Assembly (NCBI GenBank): GCA_028717245.1
Contig: JAQUOD010000001.1
Location: forward strand, 309,324 to 373,323
DNA length: 64,000 bases
From: Candidatus Omnitrophota bacterium
GTDB lineage: Bacteria; Omnitrophota; Gorgyraeia; Gygaellales; Profunditerraquicolaceae
Direction: 5' to 3'
Shown in pieces: positions 15,920 through 59,261 of the stretch. Position numbers and translations under genes: made by a program. The notes under the pieces were generated by a model, which saw nothing but the letters and a program-made list of their open reading frames with translations, had not been told where the DNA came from and searched no databases. Every line of letters begins with the position of its first letter. The stretch's first letter is position 1.

Positions 15920-16032
15920 ATCTCTAAGCGCTATTGTAAGTTACTGTAACTTAATAGTCAAGGAAAAACAAAGCGGCTGCCTTGTCTTGCTTTCTCATAA
16001 GCACCGCTTTAGTTTTCACTTAATAAGAAGCA

Positions 16033-16413
16033 GCGGGTCCTGCCGTGGGGGCGCCTCTCGTCAAATTTTCCTCGAGGCATCCCCCGCGTCACCCGCTGGA
16101 CATATTTAACCAGACAGTCTAAGTCCGTTCGTATCTTAAAGATGCTGTTCGAAAACACCCAAGCCACCCGCTAAATATGAATCTGACGAGTCACAATAAA
16201 TGAATCTGGCGGTTTTCGAGCGAATGGAGGTTTTAGCCAATGGAGCTTGAGCATTGAGGGAATCCCCGTGGAGCGAAGCGACAAAACGGGGATGGCGAAG
16301 CTGTTTGAGCAGCATTTGTTAGAACAAATGCTGCGAGTTCTGCAGCCACCGAAAATGCGAAAGATCATTGGCGTTAAAAAACCGACTTGAGCGAGAAAAC
16401 TGACAGATTCATT
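16033..16413. repeat. modular intergenic element, copy A (candidate structured ncRNA or MITE-like repeat)
   Basis: Shares a 5' module with copy B: GCGGGTCCTGCCG...GAGGCATCNCCCGCGTCACCCGCT. Carries the core AAATGAATCTGGCGGTTTTCGAGCGAATGGAGGTTTTAGCCAA and a 3' CAGATTCATT that pairs with the core. A/B differences are compensatory in stems. Confidence 0.7.
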
Positions 16414-16447
16414 GAATTGTTGCTTATGTTTATGGATAATATAAAAT

Positions 16448-16486
16448 AAAAAGGGCGAAGTGTTTTTTTTGCTTCGCCCTTTTATC
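16448..16486. terminator. bidirectional intrinsic terminator (GGGCGAAG-loop-CTTCGCCC flanked by A-run and T-run)
   Basis: 8-bp GC-rich stem 16453-16460/16472-16479 with T8 loop. TTTTAT follows on plus; TTTTTATTTTAT follows on minus. Terminates the pilin gene, and possibly a plus-strand transcript of copy A. Confidence 0.8.
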
Positions 16487-25563: not shown

Positions 25564-25874
25564 TTTAGCGGGTCCTGCCGCGTGAGCGCCTCTCGCCAAA
25601 TTTGGCTCGAGGCATCTCCCGCGTCACCCGCTAAAGATAAATATGTCAACTTGCAACAAATGAATCTGGCGGTTTTCGAGCGAATGGAGGTTTTAGCCAA
25701 AGCAGCTTGAGTGAACGAGGGAATCCGAACGCGGAAGCATTCGGACAGCGAGGATGTTTGAGCCCGTCCTGGCGAAGCCGACGGGCGAGTTCCGCAGCTG
25801 CCGAGTTCACGAAAGACCTTTGGCGTGCCCGATAGGGCAAAACCGACTTGAGCGAGAAAATCGACAGATTCATT
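25564..25874. repeat. modular intergenic element, copy B
   Basis: Begins TTTAGCGGGTCCTGCCG and ends CAGATTCATT. Has the same core as copies A and C, plus the conserved TTTGAGC-hairpin-CGAGTTC module with a different stem sequence than A. Confidence 0.7.
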
Positions 25875-25889
25875 TGTACGGTAGGCTTG

Positions 25890-56862: not shown

Positions 56863-57186
56863 CTAAAGAAGGTTCTCTTCTATCCTCTTTTTTAATTCAG
56901 CCTTACTCAAAGCGCCGACAGCCTGGTCCATGACGCGGCCTTGTTTAAAAAACATCAGTGTAGGTATGGACATTACTCCATAATGGGTGGGAGTTTTGGG
57001 GTTTTCATCTATATTGATTTTGCCGATTTTTATCCTGTGGCCGTATTCCTTGGCCAGTTCCTCGATAAAAGGCGCGATCATCTTGCAGGGCCCGCACCAG
57101 GTGGCCCAAAAATCCACCAAAACCGTCAGGTCCGCTTCCAAAACTTCCTTCTTAAAATTAGTATCGGTTAAATGTAATAAGGCCAT
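56863..57186 (-). CDS. trxA: thioredoxin
   Basis: WCGPCK active site. Confidence 0.93.
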   Translation of the reverse strand: MALLHLTDTNFKKEVLEADLTVLVDFWATWCGPCKMIAPFIEELAKEYGHRIKIGKINIDENPKTPTHYGVMSIPTLMFFKQGRVMDQAVGALSKAELKKRIEENLL

Positions 57187-57302
57187 CTGGTAATAAAATT
57201 ATTAAATAGACGGAATGAATTTATAAAATATCACAAACAGTGGGAGAATGCAAGAGATTTTAGGCTTCCGCTAAAATCCGTAGATATATATAGCAGTTTA
57301 AC

Positions 57303-57675
57303 GGGTCCTGTCTTGGCTTGTTCTCGCAGCATCGCTCGAAATTCCCAGCGTGAATTTCTCGCTTCGTGAAACTTCTCGCTCTCGATACTAAGCAGGGGCG
57401 AAACGAACCTTGCCCGCTCGAACTTTCAAGATGCTGCTGAAAAACATGCCTCGTTACCCGCTAAAGATAAATATGCTAATTTACAAATGAATCTGGCAGT
57501 TTTCGAGCGAACGTTAGCATTTAGTGGGTGGCTTGGGTGTTTTCGACAGCATGTAGTTTGTGCGAACGGCCAGGGTTCACCCGCTACCACAAATATCAGT
57601 GAGAGTGAGCACAAACTCCAAGCGATCCGCCGTAGGCGGAGAGCGGTGCTGGAGAAAATACCCAAGACAGGACCC
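57303..57675. repeat. modular intergenic element, copy C, bounded by perfect 14-bp terminal inverted repeats GGGTCCTGTCTTGG / CCAAGACAGGACCC
   Basis: Shares with A/B the core TTACCCGCTAAAGATAAATATG...CAAATGAATCTGGCAGTTTTCGAGCGAA. Shares with A the AAGATGCTG.T..GAAAAACA module. Confidence 0.75.
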
Positions 57676-57683
57676 ACTACCTC

Positions 57684-59261
57684 TCAAGTTCCTTGACTCT
57701 CATGAATTTGGCGGGAGAAATAGCCACCGGTTAAGGCATCTATGGAGGCGGTGAGTTCCTGCAGTTTTAACTCCTTCTCAAACCTTTTCTTCCTGTCTTC
57801 TATACTAAGATTATCCATCTCCGCCTTAGTGCGGATACGCTCAAAATATAATTTGGTCACCTCATCTAAGATCTCATCGCGTAACTCTACCATTAACCGC
57901 GAACGCACATCAATGGAGGTCTGGTCGTCGTTCCAGATGAGTTCGCCTAAATCCCAGCTTAAAGTCACATCCCAACCTATGCCATCGTTGCCCTTACGCA
58001 GTATATCGTCTTCGGTCTTGGTGCTGGAACCTGTCTCCCAATGCCAGAGGTCAGTAATATTCCTATCCAGGCCTATGTTCACTTGAGGCAGAAACGCTCT
58101 CTTGGCTGCCTGTTTTCTCCAACGCATAATCTTCTGAGGTTCTACTTCAGCATACTTAATTGCCGCCTGCTGCACTTCATTAATCTTAGGTTCGCCCTGG
58201 CAATACAGGAAAAAGGTATTGCCACCCCCATTGTTACTAAAACCTGTTAAATTTGCCTTAAATAATCCTTTATCACAAGCCGCATAAAGATTATTCAGGT
58301 TATCTAAAACCAGAAACCTGATATCATCTGCTGGCAGGCTAAACGATAATTCCTGCCAACGCCCCATGCTATATTTAAATATACCGGATTTGGTAAGCGC
58401 GTAGATGTCGGATCTATCGGAAACTAATAAAAATTTTATACCTTGGCTCAACAGGCCGTAGTTAGAAACTGCATCCCAACTCTTACCTTTATCCTGGCTC
58501 TTATAAAGGCCTTTTGCGGTAGCCAGATAAAGATAATTTAAGTTATTAAGGTCGCAACTTATATGGCTTACTTGCGAAAAACGCTGCTCTTCATCCCGAT
58601 CCCCCTTCTCTTGCCCGTTATCGCTATCTCCATTTTCTACGGGCTTAGCTACAAAAACCCTCTCCCAGGATTGGCCTCCATCTTGCGTCTGGAAAACCCC
58701 GTCTACACAAGCCAGAGAAATATAGCCCGATTTTTTGGGATGAACGGCAATAGCGAGAATATTACTGTTAGCTAATGTGCCTGATGCCCTTTGCCAACTG
58801 CGGCCCTTATCTTTACTCACGAAAAACCCGGACCTGGTGCCTAAGTAAATGGCCTCGGATAAAACCGCGATGCTTGTGCAGTCACTTTCTAAATAGTTCT
58901 TACCCTGAAAAATCCTCCTCCAGCCCTGGCCTTGATTATGGCTATAGAAAAGGCCGTTGCCGGTTGCCGCATATAGATAATTTCTGTTCTGATGATCAAA
59001 TAAAAGGAAATTTACTGCCTTGTTTTGGCCTTTTGCCAAAAAGATATTCCTCCAACTCTCTCCTGCATCCTCTGTCTTAAATATCCCCTTATCAGAACCG
59101 ATATAGATAATGCGCGGATTTTTCGAATCGATTAAAACACACCTTAAATCCAGGATTTCCCTGCTTATGTTCTGCCAGATGAACTCATCAGCTAGGGATC
59201 TTGTCCTAAGGCCTAAAATAAATAAACCTGCAGCTGCCAGAATTACAATATATTTTTTCAT
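57684..59261 (-). CDS. secreted BNR/Asp-box repeat (beta-propeller-like) protein with C-terminal coiled-coil region
   Basis: Signal peptide MKKYIVILAAAGLFILG. Five or more S/T-x-D-x-G-x-S-W-like repeats (DAGESW, GQGW, KGRSW, DGGQSW, DKGKSW). Confidence 0.7.
   Translation of the reverse strand: MKKYIVILAAAGLFILGLRTRSLADEFIWQNISREILDLRCVLIDSKNPRIIYIGSDKGIFKTEDAGESWRNIFLAKGQNKAVNFLLFDHQNRNYLYAATGNGLFYSHNQGQGWRRIFQGKNYLESDCTSIAVLSEAIYLGTRSGFFVSKDKGRSWQRASGTLANSNILAIAVHPKKSGYISLACVDGVFQTQDGGQSWERVFVAKPVENGDSDNGQEKGDRDEEQRFSQVSHISCDLNNLNYLYLATAKGLYKSQDKGKSWDAVSNYGLLSQGIKFLLVSDRSDIYALTKSGIFKYSMGRWQELSFSLPADDIRFLVLDNLNNLYAACDKGLFKANLTGFSNNGGGNTFFLYCQGEPKINEVQQAAIKYAEVEPQKIMRWRKQAAKRAFLPQVNIGLDRNITDLWHWETGSSTKTEDDILRKGNDGIGWDVTLSWDLGELIWNDDQTSIDVRSRLMVELRDEILDEVTKLYFERIRTKAEMDNLSIEDRKKRFEKELKLQELTASIDALTGGYFSRQIHESQGT

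Follow-up and report, generated by a model that had tools for sequence, protein, structure and literature searches.

Genomic context and boundaries of copy C

The window was the whole stretch of DNA that was analysed, 64,000 nt from a Candidatus Omnitrophota bacterium. All of its open reading frames of at least 200 aa, and all genes checked, were located on the minus strand. Three copies of a repeated sequence (A, B and C) were found in the window. Copy C occupied the spacer between a thioredoxin gene and a BNR/YCF48-like gene. The features of the three copies and of the neighbouring genes, as they are read in this work, are listed below. The strands, ends and promoters of the modules are those suggested by sequence features.

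56863..57186, minus strand: thioredoxin gene, on the other side of copy C from the BNR gene; its upstream region (57198-57262) is conserved with locus L048
57298..57467, minus strand (sense read 57467->57298): left M1' unit, long form (~170 nt); profile match; carries the left "TIR" arm at its 3' end
57303..57316: left 14-nt arm, of which the minus strand reads CCAAGACAGGACCC; P2 3' strand, ACAGG internal loop and P1 3' strand of the left unit
57468..57485: A+T-rich spacer from the left unit to the handle arm, with a counterpart of ~20 nt in copies A and B
57486..57516, plus strand: conserved 31-nt 5' handle arm AATGAATCTGGCAGTTTTCGAGCGAACGTTA, located by Hamming scan; M2 profile positions 2-31 at 57484-57513
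57518..57680, plus strand, sense: right M1' unit, long form (~163 nt); profile match; right "TIR" arm at its 3' end
57662..57675, plus strand: right 14-nt arm CCAAGACAGGACCC, 3' end of the right unit
57684..59261, minus strand: BNR/YCF48-like gene, with its stop codon 8 nt from the right arm
about 16030-16416: copy A overall, M1 part and M2 RNA
16030..16177, minus strand: M1 part of copy A, made up of a short unit (16032-16097) and, after it, a long unit that is truncated (16137-16175)
16196..16416, plus strand: M2 RNA of copy A, with handle 5' arm, GA-rich multi-helix core and handle 3' arm
about 25565-25877: copy B overall, M1' and M2
25565..25637, minus strand: short M1' unit of copy B
25656..25877, plus strand: M2 RNA of copy B, positional orthologue of the M2 in L032

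Copy C had been described in the first-pass annotation as a MITE-like element that was bounded by terminal inverted repeats (TIRs) and shared modules with copies A and B in a mosaic manner. The descriptive part of this account was borne out. Perfect 14-nt arms enclosed 373 nt: the left arm, at 57303-57316 on the plus strand, read GGGTCCTGTCTTGG, and the right arm, at 57662-57675, was its reverse complement CCAAGACAGGACCC without a mismatch. A distance of 8 nt separated the right arm from the stop codon of the BNR/YCF48-like ORF (57684-59261, minus strand). According to the repeat search, the arms could be extended to 35 nt at 77% complementarity. At up to two mismatches, GGGTCCTGTCTTGG had three matches in the window against 0.21 expected, a number that was reached in 0 of 100 shuffles; the third match was the start of copy A at 16035. 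BLAST and alignment placed the core AAATGAATCTGGC(R)GTTTTCGAGCGAA in copies A, B and C, all of which also began with GGGTCCTG. The AAGATGCTG..GAAAA module of copy C was present in copy A as well, and the 3' part of copies A and B was missing from copy C. The whole copy C block folded far better than its shuffles (z = -10.2 on the plus strand and -8.8 on the minus strand), although a strong folding z-score is expected from any long inverted repeat or inverted duplication.

Two-unit architecture and origin of the inverted repeat

A profile HMM of the M1' module (176 positions) was made from loci L002, L006, L018 and L042 only, with no sequence from the window, and was used with nhmmer. The left match ran from 57465 to 57299 (E = 2.5e-25, profile positions 3-175 of 176), and the right match ran on the opposite strand from 57520 to 57679 (E = 1.7e-18, profile positions 3-175). 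Because a foreign profile matched copy C twice, end to end, copy C was read as two complete units of ~165 nt in opposite orientation. Block-wise alignment agreed with this: once reverse-complemented, the 3' half of copy C could be aligned with the 5' half of the copy as well as with the M1 domains of L002 and L006. The ~50 nt between the two units included the 31-nt handle arm, which in copies A and B opens the M2 RNA and is paired with a 3' arm. Neither the M2 core nor that 3' arm was present in copy C. This two-unit architecture is considered highly probable.

The elements of M1' followed the order 5'-UUUAGCGGGU-GG-CUUGGnnnG-UUUCGAGC-(apical three-way junction)-GCGAGAAA-CnnnCCAAG-ACAGG-ACCCGCUAA-3'. 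The arm sequence CCAAGACAGGACCC was parsed into the P2 strand CCAAG, the loop ACAGG and the P1 strand ACCC, which together formed the 3' end of the M1' unit. Alignment columns 153-165, corresponding to the arm region, were nearly invariant and represented the best-conserved stretch of the family, and the same 14-mer also terminated solo M1' units. Hence, the perfect inverted repeat is accounted for by a near-invariant M1' 3' end that is present twice in opposite orientation.

The two units of copy C had a mutual identity of 59% and belonged to different subtypes. Against foreign copies (L002 and L018), identity was 70-72% for the left unit and 63-65% for the right unit. The two units are old paralogues. 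Both halves of copy C had the profile match and the local fold of a modular family found in Omnitrophota, the modules of which are termed M1', M2 and M3. The arms that had been taken for the TIRs of a MITE-like element were thus the 3' ends of two paralogous units, 59% identical, each fitting the family profile. The condition that the first-pass annotation gave as refuting its reading, namely that the TIR is just the closing stem of the RNA, came close to what was found: each arm was the 3' strand of its own unit's closing helices. However, there was no single stem that closed the block.

Local fold, covariation and sense strand

The alignment of long-form M1' contained both halves of copy C and four foreign units. 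The local fold was composed of P1, the internal loop GG/ACAGG, P2, a GA helix, P3 and a three-way junction. A total of 92.3% of the cells were paired and 23 of the 56 pairs were compensatory; this result was reached in 0 of 500 shuffles, and slid controls gave 34-48%. The right unit retained 48 of the 56 consensus pairs and the left unit 46, with a partly degenerate P2. The short form of M1' (~72 nt) had the same P1 and P2, and 12 of its 23 pairs were compensatory, with the P2 covariation running from CUUGG/CCAAG to CGCGG/CCGCG.

The orientation in which the first-pass annotation had read the unit, with GGGUCCUG at the 5' end, led to pyrimidine mismatches (UUUCUCGC versus GCUCGAAA). The M1' orientation read UUUCGAGC ... 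GCGAGAAA, and so had the CGAG/CGAG tandem-G.A helix that is also present in the handle of M2; read in this direction, the left unit had G.U in P1 where the other reading gave A.C. The minimum free energy (MFE) of the left unit was -63.3 kcal/mol in the sense orientation versus -50.7 kcal/mol in the other, and the corresponding values for the right unit were -77.5 and -64.8 kcal/mol. Of 16 units, 15 folded better as M1' than as M1, and the mean gain was 7.5 kcal/mol. From the better fold, the G.U in place of A.C and the CGAG/CGAG helix, we infer that M1' is the sense orientation.

For M2, the handle strand carries a genuine structure. Among its 21 sequences, 96.9% of the cells were paired and 23 of the 61 pairs were compensatory (0 of 500 shuffles reached this value; slid controls, 33-48%), with 78 G.U cells versus 8 A.C cells. 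The stretches CGAGCGAA and UGAGCGAGAA, which formed three successive tandem G.A/A.G mismatches in the M2 handle, were invariant in 21/21 sequences. The handle strand was better folded than its complement in all 23 copies, and the mean gain was 15 kcal/mol.

A scan for sigma-70 promoters gave no convincing candidate within copy C, and no intrinsic terminator stood out there. The handle was also considered as a sigma-54 promoter and rejected as such. TGGCGGTTTTCGAGC has the GG-N10-GC spacing, but its -12 box was poor, and the position that requires a conserved A was a variable, covarying N. Small open reading frames of 16 aa (at the handle ATG), 69 aa (57487-57696, plus strand) and 83 aa (57426-57677, minus strand), the latter two overlapping copy C, were judged to be non-coding, since conservation was at the nucleotide level and included third codon positions. 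The handle ATG was not kept: it was ATA in L016 and L019 and ATT in L024, with a C->U compensation in the 3' arm in L019 only.

Distribution and modular organization of the family

The core AATCTGGCNGTTTTCGAGCGA was found at eight loci in 185,579 species genomes, and the seven true loci were all from Candidatus Omnitrophota. The metagenome scan added 37 further loci, of which three were due to chance and 34 looked genuine. The matches excluded as chance, four in total, were L004, L012, L013 and L020 (Nitrobacter-like). Many of the metagenome loci were at contig ends, as would be expected of a multi-copy repeat.

Across these loci, the handle 5' arm AAAUGAAUCUGGCNGUUUUCGAGCGAAUGGAG was followed by differing cargos. 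The M2 cargo, a ~215-nt module with a ~150-nt GA-rich core closed by a complementary 3' arm, was the type present in copies A and B. The other cargos were a short hairpin, the third, long-hairpin module M3, and the inverted 5' domain that begins with GGGTCCTG (M1). The CGAG/CGAG tandem G.A helix recurred across the modules. A divergent M1' upstream of the handle was observed at 10 loci (copies A, B and C, L002, L006, L007, L008, L038, L042 and L044). A handle arm followed by a sense M1' was observed at five to six loci, namely copy C, L009, L021, L033 and L044, together with L018, in which the handles were degenerate. Both arrangements were present in L044, as in copy C; the subtypes of its units were unrelated, and its ends shared only GCGGGTCC/GGACCCGC (8 bp). 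Therefore, the long-range pairing of copy C was not a conserved feature.

The same building blocks occurred in many combinations and in both orientations across Omnitrophota, which supports the suggestion of the first-pass annotation that recombination had taken place among paralogous structured-RNA loci. In 19 loci the handle ran against both of its neighbouring genes, and in five it shared their strand; M1' had no such bias. Neither the window nor 127 kb of related sequence (16 loci, both strands) had a match to an Rfam 15 model at the gathering threshold, and searches of copies A, B and C on both strands at E <= 10 returned chance-level matches or none. No description of the family was found among the Rfam 15 entries or in the literature that could be searched, to which the main genome survey of Omnitrophota belonged.

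Orthologous sites, stability and plasticity

The closest syntenic relative was L048, in which the BNR protein was 69% identical and the gene order CHAT-TPR/BNR/thioredoxin/DRTGG/PTA/AckA was kept. Its BNR-thioredoxin spacer of 173 nt contained one 72-nt short unit, located 7 nt after the BNR stop codon. The right unit of copy C was located 6 nt after the BNR stop codon and had the same position, orientation and basal-stem subtype as the L048 unit, and the region upstream of thioredoxin was conserved beyond the L048 unit. The right unit is thus the positional orthologue of the single unit in L048. One end of the supposed element was thus ancestral at the site, because the L048 unit matched the right unit. 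What set the window apart from L048 at this spacer was the left unit together with the handle arm. The check for an empty site proposed in the first-pass annotation accordingly found one unit in this nearest relative (69% BNR identity), that is, neither an empty site nor a 373-nt block. In L050 (65% identical), other genes were present and no module was located at the corresponding site. Logan contigs from the same population (L046 and L047) broke inside the two ends.

M2 was also retained at orthologous positions. The M2 of copy B was 84% identical to its L032 orthologue, with flanking proteins 70-84% identical, and L018, L029 and L019 were syntenic with M2 in place. M2 was 82-96% identical between loci with wholly non-alignable flanks. 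The M2 of copy A and that of copy B were 67% identical to each other, whereas each was 87-90% identical to a foreign copy; the range of identities to foreign copies for copy B was 84-90%. Subtypes were thus common between genomes and not within them.

The RuvB-QueH locus was variable. L027 and L028 had unrelated ORFs between M2 and M1', and the whole block was inverted between them. The inter-module ORF of L028 encoded a 241-aa unknown protein, and those of L027 encoded a 227-aa unknown protein and a 101-aa HNH protein; a Pfam search of the three ORFs gave no match or one small HNH domain. Small accessory genes at RuvB-QueH (L027 versus L028) and the comparison of L018 with L029 were seen as hints of an exchange hotspot. 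The ORFs between M1' and M2 in six loci had no shared homology, which indicates that no enzyme is encoded by the element. Decayed units were also observed: the P2 of the left unit was affected, L018 had a collapsed ~50-nt remnant, and L029 had a unit whose 3' end was degenerate. Hence, not every copy is under selection. The density of copies was high, and copies were mosaic and truncated.

Evaluation of alternative explanations

Overall, copy C is best explained as a compound locus of M1' modules and a handle arm that formed without TIR transposition, with a probability of roughly 75%. As a MITE or other non-autonomous transposon, it would be a 373-nt mobile unit that carries an RNA gene and whose TIRs are bound by a transposase acting in trans. 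The perfect 14-bp inverted repeat, which was well beyond chance, the mosaic copies, and membership in a multi-copy family that breaks assemblies are the features expected of such an element. However, no target-site duplication was found, as the flanks AGTTTAAC and ACTACCTC had no direct repeat. The copies of a MITE and their two ends are normally homogeneous, whereas the arms came from units of differing subtypes that were only 59% identical, and the M2 RNAs of copies A and B were 67% identical where near-identical copies in the genome would be expected. The arms did not delimit a unit either: each paired locally within its own unit, with covariation, and the 14-mer ended every solo unit, so it was no marker of the ends of a 373-nt element. 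Moreover, the orthologous site in L048 had one unit and was not empty, and the C-like locus L044 had an end identity of only 8 bp. No transposase-sized ORF, or any other ORF, was flanked by these ends in the 64-kb window plus ~350 kb of related loci. Plasmid and phage collections and viral contigs gave no match beyond chance. The MITE reading is considered extremely improbable. A phage or plasmid origin was rejected as well, since the handle had 0 matches in viral contigs and blastn found no match in plasmids or phages; the 16-mer CCAAGACAGGACCCGC had five viral-contig matches, which equals chance, and no module was present there. IS200/IS605 elements, PATEs and omega/reRNA were rejected because there was no neighbouring gene of the size of TnpA, TnpB or IscB and no match to a HEARO/omega RNA model; the only nuclease-like neighbour of a module was the 101-aa HNH ORF in L027. 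An integron attC site was discarded because the R'/R'' boxes GTTRRRY/RYYYAAC and an integrase were absent.

The compound-locus reading was also compared with two other explanations. The block could be a single long hairpin RNA of ~380 nt with a 14-bp closing stem, which might serve as a substrate of RNase III or as a 3'-UTR stabiliser of the BNR mRNA. At its MFE of -163 to -165 kcal/mol (z = -10), the whole block indeed formed a rod; in the direction of the mRNA, the block began 6-8 nt past the stop codon of BNR; and a transcript spanning the block would prefer the rod (-165 kcal/mol) over the local folds (-51, -78 and -6 kcal/mol). However, any inverted duplication yields such a z-score, and the long-range pairing was not conserved, given the single unit of L048 and the unrelated subtypes with 8 bp in L044, whereas each half retained the local three-way-junction fold of the family with compensatory changes. 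The long hairpin is therefore regarded as very unlikely. The main rival to an RNA-level role was repeat biology of the REP/ERIC type, in which the modules are REP/BIME-, REPIN- or ERIC-like repeats acting at the level of DNA or single-stranded DNA, copy C is a REPIN-like inverted doublet, effects on RNA are secondary, and spread is due to an enzyme acting in trans or to recombination. The high copy number with assembly breaks, the mosaic, truncated and decayed copies, and the location of units 3-25 nt from stop or start codons are consistent with it. So are the occurrence of M1' in both orientations relative to genes and handle, which fits a DNA-level palindromic repeat, and the conserved RuvB-QueH locus, where the genes that separate the modules vary and L027 and L028 carry the block in opposite orientations. 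Copy C also has the geometry of a doublet, but its units, at 70-250 nt, were much larger than the 20-40 nt palindromes of REPs and had multi-helix, three-way junctions and conserved unpaired bases. Subtypes were common between species (the M2 of copy B was 84-90% identical to foreign copies versus 67% to copy A), positional orthologues were more conserved than their flanks, and the G.U pairs and tandem G.A conserved on one strand point to RNA. Furthermore, no RAYT/Y1-transposase-like gene was located beside any module in the loci examined. This explanation is considered unlikely, though better placed than the hairpin. Copy number, mosaicism and the differing inter-module genes of L027 and L028 could nevertheless reflect some form of mobility.

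Proposed role and significance

An RNA-level role of the modules is suggested by the better fold of the strand that carries the G.U pairs and tandem G.A (15/16 M1 and 23/23 M2), and the chances for and against it are judged to be about even. The modules may function as structured RNAs that have sheared tandem-G.A helices at their core and for which the handle would serve as a common leader or closing stem. The common CGAG/CGAG helix may be a recognition platform, probably for a protein. The mosaics seen in copies A, B and C would have arisen from recombination or duplication among paralogous copies and not from TIR-dependent transposition. More tentatively, and with somewhat less confidence than the RNA-level role itself, copy C may be a locus of an undescribed modular RNA family (M1', M2 and M3) that extends across Omnitrophota and is perhaps a platform for protein binding or processing; the divergent M1'/M2 pair perhaps brackets a hotspot at which small accessory genes are exchanged. 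If true, this would be a new class of RNA or recombination module, unrelated to known ncRNA, REP or MITE families.

The perfect TIR, which invites a MITE call, is explained by the ends of two modules, and annotation of the locus as a transposon is to be avoided. The family was restricted to one phylum, multi-copy and folded, and its covariation was unusually strong, as two of the modules had 23 compensatory pairs each. The bacteria of this phylum are ultra-small, have not been cultivated and probably depend on a host, and an abundant conserved RNA or repeat system may be useful as a handle for metatranscriptomics of the phylum and for the search for a partner protein. The family is also a practical source of assembly breaks in Omnitrophota MAGs.

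Comparison with known systems

The MITEs of the Correia/NEMIS type in Neisseria resemble the family in being small, non-coding, multi-copy and intergenic, and in being foldable when transcribed. The likeness of copy C to these elements, which lies in its perfect terminal inverted repeats, is superficial: copy C had no target-site duplication, its ends were not specific to the 373 nt, and its halves were 59% identical. In the family, no related IS was found, and the internal structure was kept by compensatory changes across species.

REP/BIME and REPIN sequences are likewise interspersed palindromic modules that occur in either orientation and as mosaics, many units being located just after stop codons, and the two inverted units of copy C make up a larger hairpin as in a REPIN. 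However, REPs are simple hairpins of 20-40 nt, whereas the units of the family were 70-250 nt long with three-way junctions. The family was conserved across species of the phylum and was not species-specific, it had a strand-specific G.U / tandem G.A signature, and no RAYT was seen. ERIC/IRU and pneumococcal BOX sequences are closer in size and plan: they are imperfect palindromes of more than 100 nt or modular repeats, highly conserved between species, found at transcribed intergenic sites in both orientations, with size variants arising from internal insertions and with no known mobilising enzyme. In contrast with these, the family had no sequence relation to them, at least three module types with a common CGAG/CGAG motif and a 5' handle, and a far richer secondary structure.

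With OLE, ROOL, GOLLD, raiA and HEARO/omega RNA, the family shared strong covariation, multi-helix junctions, conserved unpaired nucleotides and a restricted range. Unlike these large ncRNAs, it was without an Rfam 15 match on either strand, multi-copy in each genome and modular, and whereas HEARO/omega RNA is linked to IscB, the family was tied to no particular protein gene.

Orientation of the modules and a third hairpin module

The orientation of the module family, a multi-copy set of structured-RNA-like modules in Omnitrophota, was evaluated relative to the surrounding genes. All ORFs of at least 200 aa in the window (1-64000) and each gene that was checked were carried by the minus strand, and the GC skew was negative across the whole window. 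The sense strand of M2 and of the handle, the conserved 31-nt 5' arm that opens M2, was the plus strand, i.e., opposite to the genes. At 19 of the related loci, this sense ran against that of the two neighbouring genes, and at 5 it agreed with the two of them. Moreover, a third module, M3, was observed after the handle arm in many loci outside the window (L006, L008, L014, L030, L035, L043, L034, L040, L036 and L009). M3, which reads UUUUGCGGAGGGAUUUGUGAGCG..GCAUUAGAAAAUUUUUGGCA...ACGGCAAAAAAUUUCAGC..CGCGAACAAA..CCCGCAGCAAAA, was an extended, imperfectly paired hairpin 150-200 nt in length, and G.A mismatches were present in it as well.

Possible gene exchange between the modules and decay of units

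The interval between RuvB and QueH was syntenic in two genomes (L027:8509-10194 and L028:3101-4280), whereas the ORFs bracketed by M2 and M1' were unrelated between them. L028 carried a single ORF of 241 aa with no Pfam match, and L027 carried an ORF of 227 aa, also with no Pfam match, together with a 101-aa HNH ORF. Furthermore, the whole module-flanked block was in inverted orientation in one genome relative to the other. The block may be a gene-exchange hotspot with modules on both sides. The modules themselves were variable at another syntenic position, where the counterpart of a long M1' unit (L029:1531-1696) was a remnant that had collapsed to about 50 nt (L018:1890-1950), and the spacing from M2 to M1' was 560 nt in one locus and 150 nt in the other. 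Hence, M1' units decay and the spacer between the modules varies.

Hairpins and conserved sequence in the window

The features of the window considered here are as follows.
263-318: paired palindromes AGGGAC(A/T)GTCCCC ... GGGGAC(A/T)GTCCCT
15950-16030 and 16449-16483: two hairpins flanking copy A of the module family
57198-57262: region upstream of the thioredoxin gene, CCTAAAATCTCTTGCA...GTGATATTTTATAAATT

The hairpins around copy A resemble bidirectional intrinsic terminators; one, which has T-rich tails, reads AAAGCGG...CCGCTTT, and the other reads AAAAGGGCGAAG..CTTCGCCCTTTT. No such terminator-like hairpins flanked copies B and C. The thioredoxin upstream region was conserved at L048:4683-4757, although protein identity with L048 was only about 69%, and is probably a promoter or leader of that gene. 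On another Omnitrophota contig, a bAvd gene, an accessory gene of diversity-generating retroelements, was located near the BNR orthologue (L049:4610-4948).

The paired palindromes, which were also seen in L015, L028, L029 and L034, paired into a stem of 13 bp that had a mismatch at its centre. Twelve copies of this hairpin were counted in 354 kb of Omnitrophota sequence, where 0.34 were expected. It looks like a second interspersed hairpin repeat of Omnitrophota, much simpler than the module family.

Module ends and assembly breaks

Short-read contigs terminated within module ends or the handle arm (L046, 1-20; L047, 2178-2211), as did many JGI loci (L010, L011, L022, L026, L031 and L032). The module family is a practical source of fragmentation in Omnitrophota assemblies.
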